Positions 9,749-53,311 of a DNA stretch of 64,000 nucleotides are shown here, one piece after another. The position numbers were made by a program, and so were the translations under genes. This DNA comes from an uncultured Clostridia bacterium (GTDB taxonomy: Bacteria > Bacillota > Clostridia > Christensenellales > Borkfalkiaceae). A model generated the notes under the pieces. The model ran no database searches and was not told the origin of the DNA. It worked only from the letters and a program-made list of their open reading frames with translations. The stretch spans positions 58,429-122,428 of the forward strand of contig CANQMX010000002.1 of NCBI GenBank assembly GCA_947625095.1. Direction: 5' to 3'. How positions within the stretch are numbered: position 1 is the first letter of the stretch; each line of letters begins with the position of its first letter.

Positions 9749-10726
9749 TTACCACGGCAGCTCATCGGGGAACGTCACTTTTTGCCCACCGTAAGTAATC
9801 GTGAGTCCTTGTTTTAATACCATTTCCCCATAATCCTCTTCAATCCATGCAGAGACGAGCTTTCCGTCCTTGAATTTGAACGTATAGGTTGTTTCGCCCT
9901 CAGTGCCAAATGCACCATCGTGCGTCAATTGCTCCTTGTCGGCATAGTGCGCCAATAGATCCTTGTCTGTGATGACATAGCCCTTCTTCTCCTCGTCGTA
10001 TTTCGCAAACTCGAGAATGGACGAGTGCTCTTCGAAATAGGTATCCCCCAGATCTTTCAGAACTCCAAGGTGCGAAAAATTAAAAAAGAATTCGATCGTG
10101 GTAAGGTCTCCTATGGAACTCGTATGTAATTCATTAGACCAAACATTCAGAGGGTCTCCCTCCAAGTCAACTCCTTCTCCTTCATGTTCTGTAATTTTAC
10201 AGACGCTCAATAATTTCCCGCTTTCGTTGTACTTCATGTATTCTTCGAACTTTAGCATCGCTTTTTCGGGAGAGCCGCCGTTGTCGGCATCGGTAACTTC
10301 TCCGGCATATTCATAGACGGAATGATATTTCCCCATATCGTATGCGGTAGAACAGTTCCACCTTTCATATCCGCTGCGTTCTCCCGTTGCTGTAACATCC
10401 ATAAAAACATTTACTTCGAAATTCTTGTCTTGGGCAAGTTTCAAATCATGGTCGAACGCGTCCAAACCCGTGCCCGCAGAGGGATGCCAACACGGAAACC
10501 CTTGATACAATTTTGTCGCATCGTCCTCGCCCTCGAAGTCGAAGAGATAGGTGAACGTATCCCGCATCGCCTTATCCCACTGTTCGTCCGTCTCGATCTT
10601 ATCCGAAACGATCGTTTCGGGGTCGACCGGGTCTGTCTTCGCCGCCCCGAATTTGTCGCAAGCCGCAAGGCCGCAAACCGAAAGCCCCATCGCTCCCGCC
10701 AAACACAGTGCAATTGTCTTTTTCAT
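9749..10726 (-). CDS. Lipoprotein, unknown function
   Basis: MKKTIALCLAGAMGLSVCGLAAC signal peptide plus lipobox; 325 aa. Confidence 0.75.
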   Translation of the reverse strand: MKKTIALCLAGAMGLSVCGLAACDKFGAAKTDPVDPETIVSDKIETDEQWDKAMRDTFTYLFDFEGEDDATKLYQGFPCWHPSAGTGLDAFDHDLKLAQDKNFEVNVFMDVTATGERSGYERWNCSTAYDMGKYHSVYEYAGEVTDADNGGSPEKAMLKFEEYMKYNESGKLLSVCKITEHEGEGVDLEGDPLNVWSNELHTSSIGDLTTIEFFFNFSHLGVLKDLGDTYFEEHSSILEFAKYDEEKKGYVITDKDLLAHYADKEQLTHDGAFGTEGETTYTFKFKDGKLVSAWIEEDYGEMVLKQGLTITYGGQKVTFPDELPW

Positions 10727-10741
10727 TTGTTTCCTCCCGTT

Positions 10742-10760
10742 TGATACAGTTACTGTATCA
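10742..10760. promoter_or_regulatory. 19-bp perfect palindrome, putative XRE operator
   Basis: tgatacagt-t-actgtatca in the divergent intergenic region between the lipoprotein gene and XRE gene 10822. Confidence 0.5.
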
Positions 10761-10821
10761 TATTTCTTTTCATTATACGCATTCTGTATACTATTGTCAA
10801 GGATTTTACGGAAATTTCGAT

Positions 10822-11037
10822 ATGGAATTAAAGGAAAGTGTCGGAGAAAAATTACGGGAGCGGCGGCAAGAGTTGCATCTTACGCAGCGGGAAGTCGCGG
10901 CGGCGCTCGGCGTGGCGCAGCCCGTGTACCAACGCTTTGAAAGGGGCATTTACGAGTGCAGTTACTCACAACTCGCGCAGCTCTGTAAACTGCTCGATCT
11001 TTCCGCAAACTATTTGCTCGGCATTTCCGACTATTAA
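10822..11037 (+). CDS. XRE-family HTH transcriptional regulator (71 aa)
   Basis: Internal ATG 10822 of track ORF 10708..11037; LRERRQELHLTQREVAAALGVAQPVYQRFERG HTH_3 pattern. Confidence 0.8.
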   Translation: MELKESVGEKLRERRQELHLTQREVAAALGVAQPVYQRFERGIYECSYSQLAQLCKLLDLSANYLLGISDY

Positions 11038-11050
11038 CTCCGCCTCTACG

Positions 11051-11079
11051 AAAAAAAGACCCCGCATAGGGTCTTTTTT
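11051..11079 (+). terminator. Rho-independent terminator
   Basis: aaaaaaagaccc-cgcata-gggtctttttt directly after stop 11037. Confidence 0.7.
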
Positions 11080-11123
11080 CAAATGCCAAACGTCCTCCAT
11101 GGGGTACGCCTTAAACATACCGT

Positions 11124-11309
11124 CCTCCCTCATACCAAACGCGCCGAAGTAGTGTATCTTCCCTTATTTCGCGCCCCGTTCCTCCCTCATACCGAGGTTG
11201 CCGCGCCGTCCGCAGCGCCCCGCAAGGGGCGCTGCGGGCGGCAACCGCCCCGCGCGCACTATTGTCTACTAAGCGCGGCACGAGCGCATAGCGCGAAGTA
11301 GTGTATCTT
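11124..11309. repeat. Cluster of family A elements (one short, one long with an inserted module)
   Basis: ctccctcatacc...agtgtatctt (11124-11160) and cctccctcataccgaggttgccgcgccg... ending agtgtatctt at 11309; the inserted ~50-bp module recurs inverted near 18363-18414. Confidence 0.6.
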
Positions 11310-11317
11310 CCCCACGC

Positions 11318-11345
11318 AAAAAGAGACCCCCCGCGGGAGGTCTCT
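11318..11345 (-). terminator. Rho-independent terminator of pnp
   Basis: Minus strand reads agagacctcccgcggggggtctcttttt just downstream of pnp stop 11372. Confidence 0.7.
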
Positions 11346-11371
11346 CGTCATTTTTGCAAATTATCGGCGAT

Positions 11372-13468
11372 TTACGAAAGTTTTTCGAGAAGTTTGAAGT
11401 CGATCCCCTTCTCGCCGATCTTGATGATCTTCACCTTGACGACGTCGCCGATGTTGAGGACGTCCTCCACCTTCTCCACGCGCCTGTCGGAGAGTTTGGA
11501 GATGTGGATCATGCCGTCCTTGCCGGGGGCAAATTCCACGAACGCGCCCATGGTGGAGAGCACGCGGACGACCCGCCCGATGAACATATCGCCCACTTCG
11601 GGGTCGTGTACGATGCTCTCGATGATGGCCTTGGCCTTCTCGGCGGCCTGCGCGTCTCCGTAGGAGGCGACGCACACCGTGCCGTCGTCCTCGATGTCGA
11701 TCTTCGTCCCCGTCTCCGCGATGATGGAGTTGATGACCTTCCCCTGCTTGCCGACGACGTCGCCGATCTTCTCGGGGTCAATGGTGAAGAAGAGGATGCG
11801 GGGCGCATACTTGCTAAGTTCGGGCGCGACCTCGGGCACACATTCGAGCATCTTGGAGAGGATGAACTGTCTCCCCTCGTTGGCCTGCTCGATGGCGGTG
11901 TGCATGATCTCCTCGGAGATGCCCTTTATCTTGATGTCCATCTGAATGGCGGTGATGCCCTTGGTCGTGCCCGCCACCTTGAAATCCATATCGCCGAGGA
12001 AGTCCTCAAGCCCCTGGATATCCGTCATGACGCGGAATTCGCCCGTCTCCTGGTTCTTGATGAGTCCCATCGCAACGCCCGCAACGGGGGCTTTGATGGG
12101 CACGCCGGCGTCCATGAGCGCCATCGTAGAGCCGCACACGGAGGCCATGGAGGAAGAGCCGTTGGAGGAGAGAATGTCGTTTACCACGCGGATGGCGTAG
12201 GGGAACTCCTCCTTGGAGGGAATGACGGGTTCAAGCGCGCGTTCGGCAAGCGCGCCGTGGCCGATCTCGCGGCGGCCGGGGGAGCGGAGGGCCTTCGCCT
12301 CGCCCGTGCAGTAGCCGGGGAAGTTGTATTGGTGCATATACCGCTTTTCCGTCTCGTCGTCGAGGCCTTCGAGTTTCTGCGCCGCGGCGAGCATATCGAG
12401 GGTGCAGGTCGTCAGCGTCTGCGTCTGGCCGCGGGTAAAGACGGCCGAGCCGTGCGCGCGGGGCAAAACATGGCGTTCGCACCAGATGGGGCGGATGTCC
12501 TTCAACCCCCTTCCGTCGGGGCGGATGCCCTTGTCAAAGATCTTGGCGCGCACCTTCTCCTTGGTGAGGTAGTAGAGGCTGTCCTTGATCTCGCGCGTGT
12601 TCTCGGAGTAGATGTCCTTGAAGTGCTCCAAGGTCTCCGCGTCCACCTGATCCTGCCGCGCCTGCCTCTCCTGCCTGTCGAAAGTATCGAGCGCCCAGTC
12701 GAGTTTCTCGCCCGCAAATTCGCGGACGGCCTTGTCGATCTCCTCGGGAATGTGGTAGAGTTCAATGGGGAGTTTGGGCTTGCCGACGGCGGGCACGATG
12801 ACCTCTTCGATGTACTTGCAGATCTTGGAGATCTCGGCCTGTCCGAACATGATGGCGCCCACCATCTCGTCGTTCGTCACCTCCTGCGCGCCCGCCTCGA
12901 TCATGAGGATGGCGTCCTTGCTGCCCGCAAGGTTGAGGTGAATGGTGCTCTTTTCGCGCTGGGCTGCGTCGGGGTTGATGACGTACTGCCCGTCCACCAA
13001 ACCGACCACGACCGACCCCGTAGGCCCCGCCCACGGAATATCGGAGATGGAGAGCGCGATGGAAGAGCCGATCATGGCGAGGGGCTCGGGCGCAACGTCG
13101 GGTTCGACGGAGAGCGCGGTCGCCACGACGACGACGTCATTGAAGAGTCCCTTGGGGAAGAGCGGGCGCAGGGGTCTGTCGATGAGCCGCGCCGTCAGAA
13201 TGGCCTTGTCGGAGGCTCTGCCCTCTCTGCGCTTGAAGCCGCCGGGGATCTTGCCGACGGCGAACATTTTTTCCTCGTAGTCCACTTGGAGGGGGAAGAA
13301 ATCGATCCCGTCGCGGGGGGTCGTCGACATACAGACGTTGACCATGACGGCAGTCTCGCCGCAGCGGACGACGCACGAGCCGTTCGTCTGTTCGGCGTAC
13401 TTGCCCGTCTCGACGGTAACTTCCCTGCCGCCGACCGTAAATTTGAATTCTTTGTAATTGGGTGTCAT
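11372..13468 (-). CDS. pnp: Polyribonucleotide nucleotidyltransferase (PNPase)
   Basis: 698 aa with two RNase PH-like domains, KH and S1 (GRVVRVLSTMGAFVEF) regions; rpsO immediately upstream. Confidence 0.95.
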   Translation of the reverse strand: MTPNYKEFKFTVGGREVTVETGKYAEQTNGSCVVRCGETAVMVNVCMSTTPRDGIDFFPLQVDYEEKMFAVGKIPGGFKRREGRASDKAILTARLIDRPLRPLFPKGLFNDVVVVATALSVEPDVAPEPLAMIGSSIALSISDIPWAGPTGSVVVGLVDGQYVINPDAAQREKSTIHLNLAGSKDAILMIEAGAQEVTNDEMVGAIMFGQAEISKICKYIEEVIVPAVGKPKLPIELYHIPEEIDKAVREFAGEKLDWALDTFDRQERQARQDQVDAETLEHFKDIYSENTREIKDSLYYLTKEKVRAKIFDKGIRPDGRGLKDIRPIWCERHVLPRAHGSAVFTRGQTQTLTTCTLDMLAAAQKLEGLDDETEKRYMHQYNFPGYCTGEAKALRSPGRREIGHGALAERALEPVIPSKEEFPYAIRVVNDILSSNGSSSMASVCGSTMALMDAGVPIKAPVAGVAMGLIKNQETGEFRVMTDIQGLEDFLGDMDFKVAGTTKGITAIQMDIKIKGISEEIMHTAIEQANEGRQFILSKMLECVPEVAPELSKYAPRILFFTIDPEKIGDVVGKQGKVINSIIAETGTKIDIEDDGTVCVASYGDAQAAEKAKAIIESIVHDPEVGDMFIGRVVRVLSTMGAFVEFAPGKDGMIHISKLSDRRVEKVEDVLNIGDVVKVKIIKIGEKGIDFKLLEKLS

Positions 13469-42845: not shown

Positions 42846-42867
42846 CGCCCGCCACACAGGGCGGGCG
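42846..42867 (-). other. GC-rich hairpin 16 nt downstream of the VR2 stop (DGR target-recognition hairpin and/or terminator)
   Basis: Minus strand CGCCCGCC-CTGTGT-GGCGGGCG; same loop and similar spacing as the hairpin after VR1 (51658-51683). Confidence 0.6.
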
Positions 42868-42883: not shown

Positions 42884-43693
42884 TTATACGCAAAAGCCGA
42901 GGCACACGCCGTTCGAGTTGTCAGCGCCGTCGCCGTCGACGTAGCCACCGCCGTAGACGTAGAGGAAGTAGTAGGAATCGTCAACGCGAGGAGAACGGAG
43001 CCACCAGTAGCCAGTGGAGCCACCAGACCTGCGCTTGATGCGATTATTCTCGTCGTCTTCAAAATATGCGTACTGCGCTCCCTCATCCGCTACGTCGTCA
43101 CCATCCAGCCCGCACACCTCCGATTCGGAGAAAAGGAACAGCTTGTCCACTGTGGTTCCGACTTCTCGTGAGCCGCCGCCAATCGTTGTGGTTTTTTCGA
43201 CCTGCTTGATGACGGCCTTTGCCGCATCTGGTAGCAATCTGTACAGCCTCTCCATATAGACCGTGCGCATCTTCGAGTCTTTCCATCCGCCCTCGTTGGA
43301 CCATACCTCGTTCATCTCGTACCAACCGTCGATAATCCCCTTGAACCCGAACGTGATACCGGCACGATTTGACGTTCTCGCAATCCTATCGTGGTTGAAC
43401 CCAAGGATTACGAGTTTCACCACCTCTCCGGTGAGCAATTCGACGTCTTTTTCTTGCCCGACCCAGAAGTGTTTTTGCGCACACCCGGACTCGGCAATTC
43501 TTGCAATTTCCGCCCAACTCATATTGTTGAGCGAGTCCACGTCTTGCGAAACGTGGTAGTTGTGCAGAGCCGCAAATACCGGACAACTGCTCTCGCACCC
43601 AAGGCTTTTTAACTTTGGGCATAAGCAGTTGGTCCTGCACAATTCGTCTTCCGCCATCTTTCTGGCTCTTTCGTTCATCTTTGTTTCATTCAT
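42884..43693 (-). CDS. Second DGR target protein (269 aa), non-structural context
   Basis: Start ATG 43691-43693 behind AGGAGG; C-terminal about 200 aa homologous to the C-terminus of fibre 51698..53311 (ILGF.HD...GITFG...NEGGW..S.MR...); ends ...WWLRSPRVDDSYYFLYVYGGGYVDGDGADNSNGVCLGFCV, encoded by VR2. Confidence 0.85.
   Translation of the reverse strand: MNETKMNERARKMAEDELCRTNCLCPKLKSLGCESSCPVFAALHNYHVSQDVDSLNNMSWAEIARIAESGCAQKHFWVGQEKDVELLTGEVVKLVILGFNHDRIARTSNRAGITFGFKGIIDGWYEMNEVWSNEGGWKDSKMRTVYMERLYRLLPDAAKAVIKQVEKTTTIGGGSREVGTTVDKLFLFSESEVCGLDGDDVADEGAQYAYFEDDENNRIKRRSGGSTGYWWLRSPRVDDSYYFLYVYGGGYVDGDGADNSNGVCLGFCV
42890..43024 (-). repeat. DGR variable repeat VR2
   Basis: 135 bp aligned by hand to TR 50682-50816 without gaps: 18 mismatches, all where the TR coding strand has A. 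Confidence 0.9.
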
Positions 43694-45909: not shown

Positions 45910-46162
45910 TGCTGTATCCCTCCAATCTTTTCTTGTCTTTTCTTACTTTGCGGAACTCCAAGCCCCACATCTCCGATATGAAGCCGATAACCTCATCCGC
46001 CGGAAGTTCTGCGAGCGTCTCGGCCAGTCCATCGTTGTCGTCCATATCCGCCCACTCCATTGCCTGTTCTCTCCACTGCTCAACGGTGTAGTCTCGGTAC
46101 ATCCCGAACTCTCCACCCTGCAAGTCTCTCGAAACTCTATATCTTATTTCCTTATCCATCAT
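45899..46162 (-). CDS. Hypothetical protein (87 aa)
   Basis: Start moved to the ATG that overlaps the upstream stop as ATGA. Confidence 0.5.
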   Translation of the reverse strand: MMDKEIRYRVSRDLQGGEFGMYRDYTVEQWREQAMEWADMDDNDGLAETLAELPADEVIGFISEMWGLEFRKVRKDKKRLEGYSNVK

Positions 46163-46557
46163 TGCTCCTCCGACCACCCTATAAGGGTTAACTCGTAATC
46201 TCTAACCTCCTTCTCGGTAAGCAACCTTGAATAGACAAGGATGTCGTGGAAGTTGCTCGTGAGGCTATCCTCTCTTCTTATCAATCCTTCCATTGGCTGA
46301 CATCCGGGAGAAAACCCCCTCAACCTCATTCCGTATGTATAGGTAACTGCCTTCTTCTCTCCCGCCAAAACATCGAAGTCGATTATATCCGCAGAGGGCT
46401 TGTTGTCCGCCCTCAATCTGCGAATCTGCTCGACCTCGTTGGGGAATTGGCAAACCCCGCCGAAAAACTTCTCGCAAAATGCCGCAATCGAATGGAACTT
46501 TGAGGTTCCATATACCGAGTACGAGCCGTCTTGATAAATAATCTGGTATCGTGTCAT
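46159..46557 (-). CDS. Hypothetical protein (132 aa)
   Basis: Track ORF; C-terminal YGMRLRGFSPGCQP...ILVYSRLLTEKEVRDYEL motif noted but not assigned. Confidence 0.6.
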   Translation of the reverse strand: MTRYQIIYQDGSYSVYGTSKFHSIAAFCEKFFGGVCQFPNEVEQIRRLRADNKPSADIIDFDVLAGEKKAVTYTYGMRLRGFSPGCQPMEGLIRREDSLTSNFHDILVYSRLLTEKEVRDYELTLIGWSEEQ

Positions 46558-46571
46558 ATCTTCTTACCTCC

Positions 46572-46916
46572 TTAATCTCTCGTAAGCAAGTCGTAGAGTT
46601 CTTGCGTTTCCTGTCTGTCGTGAATGGGAAGCGGATGTCCTGCAAGTTCGCTGAATCTTCCATCGCTCGAATAGGCAATGTTTCCACCAAACATCCATCC
46701 CAGATGTTCCGGCCTTGCTATCGGCTCCAAGAACTTATAACCGTTCCTGTCGCAAACCTTGACCAAGTTTTCCGGCGGATTGCTTTCGTCGATTTTTATG
46801 TGGCCATCTTCGCACACCAAGAGGAGTTGCTCGTATCTGCTGCTTATTCCTCCGTTGGTGCAATCGCAATCTCCGTTGCCCTTTGCTACATACACTTTAA
46901 TGGGTAATGCCTTCAT
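46572..46916 (-). CDS. Hypothetical protein (114 aa), first gene of accessory operon 3
   Basis: Track ORF; ATG preceded by GGAGGTT. Confidence 0.6.
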   Translation of the reverse strand: MKALPIKVYVAKGNGDCDCTNGGISSRYEQLLLVCEDGHIKIDESNPPENLVKVCDRNGYKFLEPIARPEHLGWMFGGNIAYSSDGRFSELAGHPLPIHDRQETQELYDLLTRD

Positions 46917-47185: not shown

Positions 47186-47348
47186 AAAGAAAAATACTCG
47201 TGCGCTCCCACCATTCTATCCGACCCAATAGAAACGCCTTATTTAAGCCGATAAGCGTCAATAGTAAAGTATGAGTATTTATAGGTAAAAGACGAAAAGT
47301 CTCGTTAGGTGGGTTGTAGGAGCCTTATTTTCTGCTTTTGGGCAAAAG

Positions 47349-47370
47349 AAAAAAGCCCACGTTATGGGCT
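47349..47370 (-). terminator. Rho-independent terminator after yafQ-like gene
   Basis: Minus strand agccca-taacg-tgggct followed by tttttt. Confidence 0.7.
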
Positions 47371-47396
47371 TTCCATAAAGTGGGCTATTCTTGCGG

Positions 47397-47672
47397 TCAA
47401 AACAGGTCTGAATGCGAACCCGTTCTTGACAGGTAGAGAATTATCTGTTCTCCATTCTTCTTGTAGATGAGCAACCAATCCGGTTCGATGTGGCACTCTC
47501 GGAATCCGTCATAGTTCCCGGACAACTCGTGGTCTCTGTATCTCGCATCGAGTTCTTCGTCGTTTGACAGTTTCTCAACGATGCCGAAAAGTTTATCGAG
47601 GTCTTTCCCTTGTCGCCGCACGAGTTTGAGGTCCTTCTTGAACTTTGTGGTAAAGCGAACTTCGTATCTCAT
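47397..47672 (-). CDS. yafQ: YafQ/RelE-family mRNA interferase toxin
   Basis: MRYEVRFTTKFKKDLKLVRRQGKDLDKL...HELSGNYDGFRECHIEPDWLLIY typical YafQ pattern; 4-nt overlap with the antitoxin gene. Confidence 0.85.
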   Translation of the reverse strand: MRYEVRFTTKFKKDLKLVRRQGKDLDKLFGIVEKLSNDEELDARYRDHELSGNYDGFRECHIEPDWLLIYKKNGEQIILYLSRTGSHSDLF

Positions 47673-47944
47673 ACTCCAAGCGCCTGCCTTAACGAATTGA
47701 TGTCTCTGTACCCCGTGTAGTTTTCGGGGTGCGCTTCCATTTGCTTAACCTCGTCCATTGCGGAAATGGTTTCCTCGTTCGGCAGCTTCTCGCTGACCTC
47801 AAAGGGAATCCCACGTTCGAGCAACGCACGCTTGAAGAAGATGCTTACCGCAGCGGACAACGAAAGGCCGATATTGTCGAACAACTCTTCCGCCTGTCTC
47901 TTGGTGTCTTCGTCAATGCTGATATACGTTTTCTTTGTAGCCAT
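47669..47944 (-). CDS. dinJ: RelB/DinJ-family antitoxin
   Basis: ISIDEDTKRQAEELFDNIGLSLSAAVSIFFKRALLERGIPFEV typical DinJ RHH N-terminal domain. Confidence 0.85.
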   Translation of the reverse strand: MATKKTYISIDEDTKRQAEELFDNIGLSLSAAVSIFFKRALLERGIPFEVSEKLPNEETISAMDEVKQMEAHPENYTGYRDINSLRQALGV

Positions 47945-48082: not shown

Positions 48083-48505
48083 TCATAGGTAATATTTGTT
48101 GCCGAGACTTGTTGCCCATCCCTCGAACCAAACGGAATCGTATGGTTTAAGGTCAGAGTATCTTTTGCGTCCGGTCCTAACAACAATTTCTCTGTACCAG
48201 TATCTTATTGCGGAAGGGATGCTTACCACAAAGGGCATCAACGGACCAAAAATAATGTTCTGGATTCCGTGGCCGCATTCGTGACGCTTAATAGACAACG
48301 AGGCGCTGTTGTTGCAGAAAAAGAAGCATCCCGCTTCAAACCCGCCCCAGTCTTTCCCGACCTCAAAGTAGACAAAATAGTGGAAACGATGAGGCTTGTG
48401 TCCGGTAACGAGGAGGGCGAGTGCGCAAACCGCTCCAACGAGAGTCATAGGAAGACCCCACGTCCACGAGAGCAACCAAAACAGAATTGCTTTAAGCGTT
48501 TTCAT
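48083..48505 (-). CDS. Multi-pass membrane protein with HExxH motif (putative membrane zincin)
   Basis: Start ATG 48505 (MKTLKAILFWLL); hydrophobic helices; KRHECGHGIQN contains HECGH. Confidence 0.55.
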   Translation of the reverse strand: MKTLKAILFWLLSWTWGLPMTLVGAVCALALLVTGHKPHRFHYFVYFEVGKDWGGFEAGCFFFCNNSASLSIKRHECGHGIQNIIFGPLMPFVVSIPSAIRYWYREIVVRTGRKRYSDLKPYDSVWFEGWATSLGNKYYL

Positions 48506-49153: not shown

Positions 49154-49333
49154 CTATTTTGCTGGCTCGCCAAGACCGCCGCAGTCTGGGCAGAGCAACT
49201 TTTCAATGTCTATCTCTTTGCCTTCGAGACAATCGTACCACACGTCGCAGGGTTGCTTACAAGGCTTTGAACTACTTTCACAAACATCACAGATATTATC
49301 TACCGTGATTTTTTGCACTTCAAGATTGGGCAT
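49154..49333 (-). CDS. Possible small Cys-rich protein (59 aa)
   Basis: Hand translation MPNLEVQKITVDNICDVCESSSKPCKQPCDVWYDCLEGKEIDIEKLLCPDCGGLGEPAK; GGAGGTGGG RBS; ATG overlaps the 3' end of the RT gene; just below the track cutoff. Confidence 0.45.
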   Translation of the reverse strand: MPNLEVQKITVDNICDVCESSSKPCKQPCDVWYDCLEGKEIDIEKLLCPDCGGLGEPAK

Positions 49334-50465
49334 AGCCCACCTCCTTATTACAATAGAATAGAGTCCGGAATAACTGTTTCATACTCCGGAGTGTGCGGTA
49401 AGCGTTACAATGTAAAAGATGACCGCACCAAGAAACGAAAGAGTCTTTGATTTTTGAGAACTCCATCCTTCCCGCATCTAACCATTGCTTGAATTTCTTC
49501 AACTTTTGTCGCATCCTCGTAATTCCTTTGCGAGCAGGTTTAACGACGACTTTTCCTGTCTCCGTAAGAAAAAACCTGTGCTTCAAGAATGTGATTCCAC
49601 GAGTGAGTTTTACGATTTGCGTCTTCTTCTCGTTGAGTTTTATCCCTATTTTCGCACACAACTCGGAGAGGTCCTTCAAACATTCTTGGAGATACTCCTT
49701 GCTTATGTGCATCATATACCCATCATCCATATACCTGCCGGACTTCCGAACCCTTCTGACCTCCTTAAAATGGTGGTCTATCGAACTCGGATACCGCAGG
49801 GCCGATATTTGAGAAATCTGACTTCCCAGACCGAGACCCTTGTCTCCTCCGAAGTCGTCTATAAGTTGGTTGATAAGACCGGACAGACGCTTATCGGAAT
49901 AAGTTTCATCGACGAGCCTTTTCAGAATATCGTGGTTGATGTTATCAAAATACTTCGAGAAATCGAACACGAGAACGTAGCCCTTTGTGCCGTATTGGCG
50001 GTAGTGTTCGTGCAACTGCCGCTTTAACCGGTTGATGGCGAAGTCTATTCCCTTGTTCTTGACACAGGCCCCATTGTCGTAAACGAATGACCGGCTGAAC
50101 AGCGGAACGAGTGAGTAGTCGCATATACATCTCTGTACAACTCTTTCGCTTATATGGACAGACTTTATATGCCTTGGCTTCCCTCGCTCCATAATGTCGA
50201 ACTCGAAGAAGCCTTTACTCTTAAACTTTCCGCTGCGCAACTGGTCGAGCGTGTTGACGACGTTCAATGAGGCGTTTGCGGTGTATCGCTGGGTGCTTGA
50301 CTTCCAATTCACACCCTTCTTGCAACACCTGTACGCCCTGTGGAGATGCTCAAAGGTAAAAACCTTATCGAAGTCTCCATACTGCTGTTCAAGCGCTACT
50401 TTCTTTGCTTCACGCTTGGCTTTTCGTCTTTGATAACGATTTTCGTGTCTTTCTTTACTATTCAT
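49320..50465 (-). CDS. DGR reverse transcriptase
   Basis: RT motifs DFSKYFDNINHD, GLGLGSQISQ (DGR-type [ILV]GxxxSQ), RYMDDGYMM (YxDD); 381 aa; TR lies about 215 nt upstream. Confidence 0.9.
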   Translation of the reverse strand: MNSKERHENRYQRRKAKREAKKVALEQQYGDFDKVFTFEHLHRAYRCCKKGVNWKSSTQRYTANASLNVVNTLDQLRSGKFKSKGFFEFDIMERGKPRHIKSVHISERVVQRCICDYSLVPLFSRSFVYDNGACVKNKGIDFAINRLKRQLHEHYRQYGTKGYVLVFDFSKYFDNINHDILKRLVDETYSDKRLSGLINQLIDDFGGDKGLGLGSQISQISALRYPSSIDHHFKEVRRVRKSGRYMDDGYMMHISKEYLQECLKDLSELCAKIGIKLNEKKTQIVKLTRGITFLKHRFFLTETGKVVVKPARKGITRMRQKLKKFKQWLDAGRMEFSKIKDSFVSWCGHLLHCNAYRTLRSMKQLFRTLFYCNKEVGYAQS

Positions 50466-50816
50466 AAAAATGTATTACTCCGTATAGCCGTGATTTGACG
50501 AAATAGGCTACTTAATTACCTACTATTAAATGGAAGTTTTCGTCGTTCTTCCACAATGCAAGAAGCGTCCAGTAGTGAATATCGGAGAATAAATTTACCC
50601 TTGCGGGAAGGTCATACACCCCTTTTGCAAAAGGCATTGATTCACGCATTATGACGTTACTATGTCGAGCCTATAAAGATTGCAAAATCCGAGGCACACG
50701 CCGTTCGAGTTGTCAGCGTTGTCGTTGTTGACGTTGCCATCGTTGTTGACGTAGAGGAAGTTGTTGGAATTGTCAACGTTAGGAGAACGGAGCCACCAGT
50801 TGTCAGTGGAGCCACC
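50466..50816 (-). ncRNA. DGR template RNA region (TR plus about 215-nt TR-RT spacer)
   Basis: Non-coding stretch between TR and the RT ATG with small palindromes (ccttttgcaaaagg about 50621-50634; cccttgcggg about 50598-50607); role inferred from other DGRs. Confidence 0.5.
50682..50816 (-). repeat. DGR template repeat (TR)
   Basis: Coding-strand sense would read GGSTDNWWLRSPNVDNSNNFLYVNNDGNVNNDNADNSNGVCLGFC, very rich in AAC codons; matches VR1 and VR2. Confidence 0.9.
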
Positions 50817-50869
50817 AACACAATGTTTACGGCATATAACCTATGATAAATTCATTCCTTCGGACAGCG

Positions 50870-51316
50870 TTAATCTACGTTGTCCTTGTACTTGCTTTGT
50901 AACTTCTTCTTCAACCCAGACAAGAGCGTCAACTCTTTCGAGATGAGTCTTGCCCAGTTCTCCCAAACCTTTGCCGGGATAGATTTCTCTTTCCCGTCCT
51001 TGTCTTTTGCGCTATAATGCGTTACAACCTTTTGCGCAACGTCCAACTGCGACGAGAGCGCTTGCAGGCTGCAAATAGCGTGGATGACATAGTTTACTCT
51101 GATTTGAGATTCTGTGGGGTTGGTAGCATAGACAGAATTTGCTGACTTTGCGTTGTTGTAAACCTGCTTTGACAGGTCCAACAGGTCCTTCGTTATAACG
51201 AAAAAGTACCGTTTCGGGAACTTGATTGCGTATCTTATCGCATATTCTTCGAGTTCCATAGCGGTTTCAAGGAACTGCACGGTGCTTTCTTCTCGGTTCT
51301 TTTCCAAGACGCCCAT
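50870..51316 (-). CDS. avd: Accessory variability determinant (Avd-like four-helix-bundle protein)
   Basis: 148 aa, helical, basic; ...FPKRYFFVITKDLLDLSKQVYNNAKSAN resembles the FPK.E...L..Q..R...SI..NIAEG pattern of the four-helix-bundle/IVS family; sits between target and TR. Confidence 0.7.
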   Translation of the reverse strand: MGVLEKNREESTVQFLETAMELEEYAIRYAIKFPKRYFFVITKDLLDLSKQVYNNAKSANSVYATNPTESQIRVNYVIHAICSLQALSSQLDVAQKVVTHYSAKDKDGKEKSIPAKVWENWARLISKELTLLSGLKKKLQSKYKDNVD

Positions 51317-51633
51317 TACCGTTTGCCCTCCACGTTTCGAGCCTCATCCGGCTCCGGTAAAACAATCTCGTCCCAATACTCTTGGTCTTTGATTTTGAGC
51401 GACTCGAAGTCAACCGTGGGGCTGACGTACTTGCCGAGGAAGAAGTCGTCGCTGGTCTTCAAGTTTCTCGAATACCAACCGGACTTGGATGCGTCCGGCT
51501 TGAACACGAGATGCCTTCTATTGGATATGACGTGAAGACGTCCATTTTCGGTATAAACAACACCCGTAAGCGCCGTTGCAACAATTTCGTCCGCCTGCCT
51601 TACTGTTTGTTTGTTCTTAAAACCTACTGTCAT
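51316..51633 (-). CDS. Hypothetical protein (105 aa) inserted between DGR target and avd
   Basis: Start ATG 51631-51633 behind AAAGGAGAAA; its stop overlaps the avd start. Confidence 0.6.
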   Translation of the reverse strand: MTVGFKNKQTVRQADEIVATALTGVVYTENGRLHVISNRRHLVFKPDASKSGWYSRNLKTSDDFFLGKYVSPTVDFESLKIKDQEYWDEIVLPEPDEARNVEGKR

Positions 51634-51657
51634 AAAATTTCTCCTTTTTGAGGTATT

Positions 51658-51683
51658 CTCTGCGCCCACACAGGGGCGCAGAG
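51658..51683 (-). other. GC-rich hairpin 14 nt downstream of the VR1 stop
   Basis: Minus strand CTCTGCGCCC-CTGTGT-GGGCGCAGAG; no T-run follows; same loop as the hairpin after VR2. Confidence 0.6.
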
Positions 51684-51697
51684 TTTCAGATTATTGA

Positions 51698-53311
51698 TTA
51701 TACGCAAAAGCCGAGGCACACGCCGCTCGAGCCGTCAGCGTAGTCGCCGCGGACGTAGCCATCGTAGTAGACGCAGAGGAAGTAGCTGGAATTGCCAACG
51801 TTCGGAGAACGGAGCCACCAGATGTCAGTGGAGCCACCCCCGTCATCAAGACTTTTAACGAGTCCGTCGTTTGCGTCGTTGGGGTCAATGTCTCCCGCTG
51901 CACTCTTGTAGTAATCGTACTGCTCGCCCTCTCCCATATAGGTGTCTGCGTAGTCCGAAATCGAGGACCAAGCGGAATTTCTTATAGCCCTCTCGGAGCA
52001 TATTTCAGCAAGCGAAAGCAGCCACAAGGAGTCATCGGACGTAACGATGTCTGTACTCGTATTGCCTGCGCTCGTTCTCTTTTTGACGGTCTTTATGACC
52101 TTTACAAGGTCGTCCGGAAGGTCTTCGAGGAGCGACTGCATCGTGCTGTTTCTCATCTCCGACTGGTCCCAACCGCCTTCATTGGTAGAACTGCCGTTCA
52201 TTGAGTAGTAGTCGGCAAGCAAATTCTTCATACCGAAAGTTATGCAAGCCTTTCCTGTACCGTCGGACAGGTCGTCGTGTTCAAATCCGAGAATAACGAA
52301 GGTTGCCGTGCCTCCCGATTTGAGTTGGACTTTCTTTTCTGCTCCAACCTTAAAGAGCGACTTTGCTCGTCCGGATTCAGCCAACGCCGCTATGACATCC
52401 CAACTCGCATTTTCAAGAGTGGGTTCCTGCGCAACGAACTTCGAGCCATTCCAGTAGATAGGCGTGTAGTCGTCGCCTATCGGAGATTTCCCAACGAGGT
52501 CCACAAGCGCAATCTCTACCGCTCCCGTTTTTCCGTTAACTTTCGTTACTGGATACGGAGGCGGATTGCTGGCGGAATACTGCTTTACGTTGTCAACGTT
52601 TCCGAGACCAACATCACCCTTTGCAATAGACACCGCTCCTGTCTTGCTGTTTACAGAGGTGACAGGGTAAGGCGGAGGGTTACTTGCAGAATATTGTCTG
52701 ACGTTATCCACATTCCCCAAACCAACATCCGCCTTTTCGTGCGTATGTGCCTTGGGGGTTCTTGCATCGGAAAGTCTGCCGTCATTGCCTTGACATACCG
52801 TCCCCGCTGCCGTGCCGAAATTTTTGTTGAACGCAGTGTTCTTGGAAAACGCCGGCTCCGCACCGACGTTCTCGGCGGTGATGTCAACCTGCCCCGTTCT
52901 GTACTTCGTTTCTGAATGACCCTTGACTCCCGTAACGGTGTTCTTCTGTGCGCCGGACTCAATGCCGTTGAGTTTTGCTTTATCTGTTGCACTCAACAGC
53001 CCTGCGGCGGAAGTCGTGGCCTCCGAAATGGTCTTATCCGCACTTCCGTCGAACTTTTCGGTTCCAATCGTAAGTGTATGATTTAATTTCTTGGCTGACG
53101 GAGCGGCGTAGGTAGCAAAAGCAGTTATCAATGAGGCAAGCTGCGAAGCAATGCTCCTGCCCGTACTTTCCGTGAGGAGCGACTTATCGGTGTAATCTTC
53201 CGAACTGACCGAACTTGACTTGCCGCTTTGAATCATAGAAAGCAAGGCTTTTAATTGGTTTACAACTTCTTGCCCTGCGCCGTCCGTAACCGGTCTATAT
53301 GATGTAGCCAA
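51698..53311 (-). CDS. Tail fibre protein, primary DGR target
   Basis: TTG start with GGAGG 8 nt upstream; duplicated DVGLGNVDNV.QYSASNPPPYPVT.VN.KTGAV fibre repeats; C-terminus ...IWWLRSPNVGNSSYFLCVYYDGYVRGDYADGSSGVCLGFCV encoded by VR1. Confidence 0.88.
   Translation of the reverse strand: MATSYRPVTDGAGQEVVNQLKALLSMIQSGKSSSVSSEDYTDKSLLTESTGRSIASQLASLITAFATYAAPSAKKLNHTLTIGTEKFDGSADKTISEATTSAAGLLSATDKAKLNGIESGAQKNTVTGVKGHSETKYRTGQVDITAENVGAEPAFSKNTAFNKNFGTAAGTVCQGNDGRLSDARTPKAHTHEKADVGLGNVDNVRQYSASNPPPYPVTSVNSKTGAVSIAKGDVGLGNVDNVKQYSASNPPPYPVTKVNGKTGAVEIALVDLVGKSPIGDDYTPIYWNGSKFVAQEPTLENASWDVIAALAESGRAKSLFKVGAEKKVQLKSGGTATFVILGFEHDDLSDGTGKACITFGMKNLLADYYSMNGSSTNEGGWDQSEMRNSTMQSLLEDLPDDLVKVIKTVKKRTSAGNTSTDIVTSDDSLWLLSLAEICSERAIRNSAWSSISDYADTYMGEGEQYDYYKSAAGDIDPNDANDGLVKSLDDGGGSTDIWWLRSPNVGNSSYFLCVYYDGYVRGDYADGSSGVCLGFCV
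51704..51838 (-). repeat. DGR variable repeat VR1
   Basis: 135 bp aligned by hand to TR without gaps: 18 mismatches, 17 at TR coding-strand adenines and 1 synonymous non-A change (CCT/CCG Pro). Confidence 0.9.

Follow-up and report, generated by a model that had tools for sequence, protein, structure and literature searches.

A diversity-generating retroelement with one template repeat and two likely DUF6273 targets in a prophage of an uncultured gut Clostridia bacterium

Diversity-generating retroelements (DGRs), a common feature of gut phages, are to our knowledge the sole natural means by which prokaryotes direct hypermutation to chosen proteins. In the prototype, the mtd-avd-TR-brt cassette of Bordetella phage BPP-1, a target gene with a variable repeat (VR) at its 3' end is followed by avd (accessory variability determinant), a template repeat (TR), a structured spacer RNA and the gene for a reverse transcriptase (RT). 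Here we describe an element with this same order of parts, carried by a prophage of an uncultured Clostridia bacterium from the gut and located on a window of 64,000 nt (the whole stretch of DNA that was analysed; GCA_947625095.1, contig CANQMX010000002.1), to whose numbering all positions refer. We read it, with a probability of roughly 93%, as a functional DGR of a temperate, contractile-tailed prophage in which one TR serves two targets. All parts of such an element are present, the mismatches to the TR are adenine-specific at both VRs, and allele turnover among near-identical prophages is confined, apart from the few exceptions given below, to TR-adenine positions. The parts, with the sequence elements around the 3' ends of the VRs (including one that resembles the initiation of mutagenic homing element, IMH), are as follows:

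51698-53311, minus strand: target gene 1, 537 aa, tail-fibre-like, with a C-terminal DUF6273 domain
51704-51838, minus strand: VR1, the last 45 codons but one of target gene 1
51696-51724, minus strand: IMH-like 3' end of VR1, a GC-rich 14-mer GGCGTGTGCCTCGG plus CTTTTGCGTATAATC
51658-51683, minus strand: VR1 hairpin, 20 nt past VR1, perfect 10-bp stem CTCTGCGCCC/GGGCGCAGAG, loop CTGTGT, no T-tract
51316-51633, minus strand: ORF105, 105 aa, between target gene 1 and avd, with an AGGAG ribosome-binding site and a stop codon that overlaps the avd start
50870-51316, minus strand: avd, 148 aa, beside the TR
50682-50816, minus strand: TR, 34 A in 135 nt, with 12 AAC codons and 1 AAT codon in frame
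50454-50674, minus strand: RT-2 RNA (Rfam RF03077), in the TR-RT spacer
49320-50465, minus strand: DGR reverse transcriptase, 381 aa
42890-43024, minus strand: VR2, a third copy of the repeat, which closes a 269-aa open reading frame (ORF)
42884-43693, minus strand: target gene 2, 269 aa, an essentially free-standing DUF6273 with a Cys-rich N-terminus of ~55 aa (CRTNCLCPKLKSLGCESSCP)
42846-42867, minus strand: VR2 hairpin, 22 nt past VR2, 8-bp stem CGCCCGCC/GGCGGGCG, loop CTGTGT

The ORF list and independent gene calls on identical public contigs agree with the RT, Avd and target coordinates.

Among known systems, those of Roseburia phage Shimadzu and of Faecalibacterium prophages stand closest to this DGR. 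Shimadzu (LR596903.1) encodes the closest annotated RT (47% identity) and has the same order of tail fibre, Avd, TR, RT and lysis genes, with an RT-2 RNA in its TR-RT spacer (145 bits), an adenine-specific TR/VR pair and a hairpin past the VR; it differs in that its annotated Avd is only 27% identical to ours (E 1e-10), that no 105-aa ORF lies between fibre and Avd, and that its host belongs to a different Clostridia order. The Faecalibacterium prophages Lelie, CP11, Roos and Pioen (PMC11792537) and the gut phages nd4 and nd12 (PMC10743442) likewise come from gut Bacillota and have DUF6273 targets with a VR at the C-terminal end of the domain. As here, Lelie and CP11 carry a large and a small DUF6273 target plus a second VR (PMC11792537), and two DUF6273 targets also occur in nd4 and nd12 (PMC10743442). 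Precedents thus exist both for DUF6273 as a target and for phage DGRs with two targets (PMC10743442, PMC11792537), and nearly all TR adenines vary across the genomes of nd4-like phages (PMC10743442). However, the RTs of these prophages and nd phages are only 31-36% identical to the one described here, the VR of one nd4/nd12 target lies near the N-terminus (‘tentaclin’) whereas both VRs here are C-terminal, and the second target here stands 5.6 kb beyond the RT gene, past lysis and toxin-antitoxin genes.

Beyond the order of its parts, the element resembles that of BPP-1 in its adenine-specific TR-to-VR differences, its TR rich in AAC codons, a GC-rich element at the VR 3' end past which the sequence is VR/TR-specific, a hairpin downstream of the VR, an RT whose best match of solved structure is the BPP-1 enzyme with aligned motifs, and a matching Avd fold. 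It differs in that the RT match is remote (78 bits), the spacer RNA is RT-2 rather than RT-10, the tip is of DUF6273 rather than Mtd type and there are two targets rather than one, an additional 105-aa gene lies between VR and avd, and the hairpin loop is 6 nt long. The locus introduces no new principle and is a well-formed example of a well-known system; its value lies in being a clean, fully annotated case from an uncultivated Christensenellales-like Clostridia prophage, with two targets and a natural allele series for both, which could serve DGR annotation pipelines and the choice of a Gram-positive DGR for comparison with BPP-1.

The TR and VR1 were recovered independently by a repeat finder as a direct repeat of 135 nt (50682-50816 and 51704-51838, 87% identity, spacing 1022). 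On the coding (minus) strand they differ at 18 positions, 17 of which are adenines in the TR (A>G 9, A>T 6, A>C 2), while the remaining mismatch, a T>G at repeat position 36, is a synonymous proline change (CCT>CCG); this computational recount gives exactly the figures of the hand alignment in an earlier reading of the DNA made from its letters and ORFs (hereafter, the sequence-only reading). Enrichment of the mismatches at adenines is strong (odds ratio 100, Fisher p = 2.2e-11). The template had also been described there as AAC-rich and free of stop-codon risk, and the codon counts listed above agree with this: only 1 of the 34 TR adenines occupies a third codon position, a stop codon is impossible from any A-substitution in the TR frame, and the 20 variable codons per target allow ~3e19 possible peptides. 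Two refinements apply to the edges of the repeat. An A>C at repeat position 129 is common to every VR allele seen (six) and is thus a fixed difference between VR and TR rather than a product of mutagenesis, and repeat positions 1-2 are not constant among related VR1 alleles, which puts the true 5' edge of the repeat at about position 3.

Scanning the whole window with the TR, with mismatches at A ignored, revealed VR2, which has 18 mismatches to the TR, all 18 of them at TR adenines. Since this copy ends a second DUF6273 protein, a single TR feeds two targets. The sequence-only reading had placed a complete DGR at 49320-53311; the parts that it named all hold, whereas its account left out VR2 (outside that interval, 7.7 kb), the RT-2 RNA and the hairpins, and its interval takes in ORF105, which is probably not a DGR gene.

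Variation in the repeats was followed among prophages that are 98-99% identical and come from other samples. An invariant VR1 in population data had been named beforehand as a point that would tell against a DGR; three VR1 alleles and two VR2 alleles were found, with an invariant TR. One contig (L004) is 99.2% identical over 7188 nt with 57 mismatches, and 17 of these lie inside the 135-nt VR2, every one at a TR adenine. In another (L019), VR1 accounts for 25 of the 47 mismatches counted over 3127 nt; the L019 allele, which is also that of L022, and the allele of L024 are the two further VR1 alleles. Any two of the three VR1 alleles differ at 23-26 positions, and 21-23 of these positions are TR adenines. 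The TR itself is exact in L019, L020, L021 and L023 despite single-nucleotide polymorphisms in its flanks. When six VR alleles are compared with the TR, 114 of the 124 differences fall at TR adenines, and six of the other ten belong to a boundary dinucleotide (positions 1-2) that is shared. Variation in one or more alleles affects 32 of the 34 TR adenines. As near-identical prophages differ almost only at the TR-adenine positions of their VRs, the element appears, from these sequence comparisons, to have been recently active in this lineage. A sister lineage, whose Avd is 71% identical, keeps the order of target, ORF105, Avd, TR, RT-2 and RT, and between samples its contigs differ over 6.9 kb at just 18-21 positions, all in the VR and nearly all at TR adenines.

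The related contigs were recovered solely via a protein collection, the VR1 alleles through contigs that encode variants of the neighbouring ORF105. Among 50,697 phage records, megablast found no match to the 4-kb cassette. An exact pattern made of the non-adenine TR core and the GC-rich end did not occur in IMG/VR, JGI metagenomes or GTDB species representatives, so that the lineage is absent from these three collections. The 90% cluster of target 1 has one member, and the next target is 50% identical. Four contigs (L020, L021, L025 and L024) begin at or inside VR1, with ends at window positions 51716-51846, a pattern that heterogeneity of the VR within a sample would produce. In the first 580 nt of one further contig (L023 1-580; ENA ERZ27249389, coverage 1.3), a GNAT acetyltransferase gene rather than a tail-fibre gene precedes ORF105-avd-TR; this may be a chimeric low-coverage assembly or a truly different context.

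Functionally, the RT matches Pfam RVT_1 (1.6e-16) and PHROG 1423 (5.5e-84), and its best match in the PDB is 8ub7_A, the BPP-1 DGR RT (bRT; E 6.7e-21), compared with 2e-10 for group II intron RTs; 8ub7 is the BPP-1 DGR ribonucleoprotein, according to the Foldseek description of its chain B. The sequence-only reading had pointed to a DGR-type GxxxSQ and a YMDD motif, and both align to bRT (LGSQISQ with IGSLTSQ, and RYMDD with RYMDD), such that the enzyme carries [ILV]GxxxSQ together with a YxDD catalytic motif. Its sequence thus supports assignment to the DGR type.

The entire TR-RT spacer is filled by a match to the Rfam family RT-2, which covers the full length of the model (112.2 bits against a gathering score of 40, E 4e-26) and runs from 7 nt past the TR to just beyond the RT start codon, which it overlaps. 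The same RNA occupies the same place between TR and RT in five related DGRs, namely those of L007 (GCA_963650915.1), phage Shimadzu, L009, L010 and L013, making six loci with the window, and it is presumably the spacer RNA of the DGR. Weinberg et al. 2017 (PMC5737381) showed that in BPP-1 this spacer is occupied by the RT-10 motif, with the speculation that further RT motifs play such a part elsewhere among DGRs. No paper that places RT-2 in a DGR TR-RT spacer was found in a literature search on the two. The orphan motif gains a concrete genomic role here, as the TR-RT spacer RNA of this DGR clade.

The gene beside the TR had been proposed to be an Avd-like four-helix gene, and the evidence agrees with this. 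Its product matches PHROG 3206, ‘Avd protein of DGR’ (2.5e-7), and its AlphaFold2 model consists of four long helices in a four-helix bundle (predicted local distance difference test, pLDDT, 84.6), which Foldseek matches to 2gsc (E 1.5e-3) and to bAvd, 8ub7_B (prob 1.0, TM 0.77). The protein family comprises 650 representatives (full HMMER search), and a few of 56 sampled members reach Pfam bAvd (PF22296) and 23S_rRNA_IVP. The identity of Avd therefore rests on fold comparison, PHROGs and the matches of family members; a phmmer search of the protein against the PDB gave nothing meaningful.

A three-way alignment of VR1, TR and VR2 shows that CTTTTGCGTATAATC continues both VRs past the GC-rich GGCGTGTGCCTCGG, where the TR has ATTTTGCAATCTTTA; repeat position 129, just past the 14-mer, is C in both VRs and A in the TR. 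By analogy with BPP-1, this resembles an IMH versus IMH*-type difference, and the VR ends may act in homing as they do there. Each VR is followed by a GC-rich hairpin, the two having the loop CTGTGT in common while their stems differ. The VR1 hairpin has a DNA fold of −14.2 kcal/mol (z −6.6) and the VR2 hairpin a z of −3.5, whereas the matching stretch after the TR has no fold (z 0.0) and no hairpin. The features expected of a directional signal, a GC-rich/IMH element and a downstream hairpin, are thus found at both VRs and are absent at the TR. Plain terminators were considered for the hairpins and set aside: that of VR1 has no T-tract and was not flagged as a terminator, and that of VR2 was flagged only as marginally terminator-like. 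A role of the hairpins in homing is suggested by the BPP-1 system.

Target gene 1 follows the baseplate genes, its N-terminal half has PHROG tail-fibre and tail-collar matches, and residues 371-532 of its product are Pfam DUF6273 (8e-14), all of which bears out the proposal of a tail-fibre-like protein ending in VR1. The C-terminal 242 aa were modelled with high confidence (pLDDT 93.5). A C-type lectin or formylglycine-generating enzyme (FGE) fold had been expected for the tip; the domain is DUF6273, and the expected fold was recovered only weakly by Foldseek. This VR1 tip of the tail fibre presumably binds the receptor. Target gene 2 stands apart from the cassette, 5.6 kb beyond the RT gene, among accessory genes. 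Its DUF6273 assignment comes from the Pfam match of the gene call on the identical contig L001, it is 44% identical to residues 298-537 of target 1, and its PHROG matches are 37900 and the DUF6273 part of ‘Hoc-like head decoration’.

By analogy with BPP-1, an RNA spanning the TR and the RT-2 spacer would be transcribed and bound by a complex of RT and Avd; the RT would then copy the TR into cDNA, with misincorporation opposite template adenines, and the cDNA would replace the homologous VR. The spacer RNA may prime this synthesis, and directionality would follow from the GC-rich/IMH-like 3' end and the hairpin, which come after each VR and not after the TR. In this way 20 codons in each target could be randomised without the risk of a stop codon. 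More speculatively, and with considerable doubt on our part, we raise the idea that the VR2 protein might be an accessory protein acting in or on the lysogen or its environment rather than a receptor-binding protein of the virion and, as a separate matter, that RT-2 might represent a self-priming class of spacer RNA, structurally distinct from the RT-10 of BPP-1, in a large clade of gut Bacillota phage DGRs. If the former were true, one TR would diversify a phage-side and a host-side function simultaneously.

Several observations weigh against a functional DGR with these parts. Avd itself has no Pfam or NCBIfam match, being too divergent, and a profile built from the 56 sampled family members did not reach bAvd in the PDB; the C-type lectin matches of the tip model are short, weak and local; a few VR differences fall at bases other than adenine (T>G in both cases, at position 36 in the window and at position 64 in L019); and the hairpins may not be specific to DGRs, because one is also kept in a contig without an adjacent avd, TR or RT (L008, described below) and because the VR2 hairpin is weakly terminator-like. 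In addition, two contigs with different sample accessions (L001 and L002) match the window at 100% identity, also in their VRs. This last observation would fit a prophage copy that is silent or a relic, its alleles having arisen when it was still active in the past or during lytic cycles of its relatives, and L007 indicates that such cassettes can run down: over positions 1780-2927 of that contig the same cassette has an adenine-poor TR (19 A) with only 6 TR/VR mismatches, all at A, and may represent a DGR with a template that is now far less open to mutagenesis. We nonetheless consider a silent copy unlikely in the present case, as the RT, Avd, TR and RT-2 RNA are intact with their catalytic motifs present, prophages that are 0.6-0.8% diverged outside the VRs hold completely different VR alleles, and several contigs break at VR1 in the manner noted above.

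The VR differences could also be thought to arise without reverse transcription, by recombination or gene conversion among the paralogous DUF6273 gene ends, given that three copies of the repeat (VR1, VR2 and TR) lie within 9 kb and that the flank CTTTTGCGTATAATC is common to both VRs. Gene conversion, though, is unable to make new bases solely at the adenines of the TR, where the great majority of allele differences fall, and the TR never changes among the alleles compared, which together render this origin very improbable. Finally, the RT might derive from another kind of retroelement, such as a retron, a group II intron or a defence RT, with the repeat being unrelated to it. An NCBIfam search of the RT gave no DGR-specific match, and its best match was to a group II intron RT/maturase (6e-25), followed by weaker ones to Drt3a and others; however, all of these are far under the curated cut-offs, with 88 bits against 300 for the group II model and 22 bits against 235 for the Retron St85 model, and both assignments were rejected. 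An Rfam scan likewise found only RT-2, and no intron RNA domains or retron msr/msd. With the BPP-1 DGR RT as its best solved relative, [ILV]GxxxSQ present and the closest annotated phage RTs sitting in DGRs, we attach a negligible chance to such an origin. A functional DGR serving two targets accordingly remains our preferred reading of the locus.

ORF105 had no family match in Pfam, NCBIfam or PHROG searches. It is kept beside the fibre gene both in L007, together with a DGR (58% identity), and in L008 (37% identity), without adjacent avd, TR and RT, and we therefore assign it to the fibre module rather than to the DGR; it is probably a fibre-associated protein, and its candidacy as a new DGR accessory gene was rejected on the same grounds. 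The L008 contig (Logan ERR14127505) has, at 10001-12050, a homologous fibre gene with the end WWLRSP...GVCFGFCV, the downstream hairpin and ORF105, after which the lysis genes follow with no avd, TR or RT in between. On this evidence, the avd-TR-RT module of ~2.2 kb behaves as a discrete indel that has been gained or lost, that is, as a unit present or absent beside an otherwise conserved fibre-ORF105-lysis arrangement.

The window from 1 to ~31 kb (1-31300) is host chromosome, with genes for an SMC-like protein, PNPase, radical SAM enzymes, RelA/SpoT, RecJ, a SecDF-like protein, TGT and a sugar epimerase/dehydratase. At 93% identity, the host PNPase matches that of metagenome-assembled genomes (MAGs) of uncultured Clostridia from rabbit gut; related MAGs carry the labels Christensenellaceae or Candidatus Gallimonas. 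The remainder of the window is the prophage, with tape measure, baseplate and sheath-initiator genes, and the prophage is a temperate, contractile-tailed one. Its DGR sits between the fibre genes and a lysis cluster with XhlA-like and holin-like genes, beyond which lie a RelB/YafQ pair, accessory genes and then target gene 2.

The last gene of the lysis cluster encodes a 140-aa membrane protein (48083-48505, minus strand) with a HECGH (HExxH-like) motif and no family match, and no endolysin domain was recognisable in the cluster. The RelB/YafQ(ParE)-type toxin-antitoxin pair (47397-47944) stands between the lysis genes and target gene 2 and is also kept in the sister lineage (L010, L013 and L018); immediately upstream of it is a perfect (12/12) sigma-70-like promoter at 48008-47980 (minus strand). 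Directly past the toxin gene, a weak Rfam match to ctRNA_p42d (47342-47391, minus strand; 28.8 bits against a gathering score of 50, E 0.004) overlies a terminator-like hairpin and is probably just that terminator. Between the pair and target gene 2 are prophage accessory genes with DarA_C and DUF8317 domains (46159-46557 and 46572-46916, minus strand), assigned from precomputed Pfam matches on the identical contig L001, which may be anti-restriction or moron genes. The 3' end of the RT gene is overlapped by a 59-aa Cys-rich ORF (CDVC...C...C...CPDC; 49154-49333, minus strand), which gene calling predicts in every identical contig; in phage Shimadzu, too, the RT gene ends within a small overlapping ORF.

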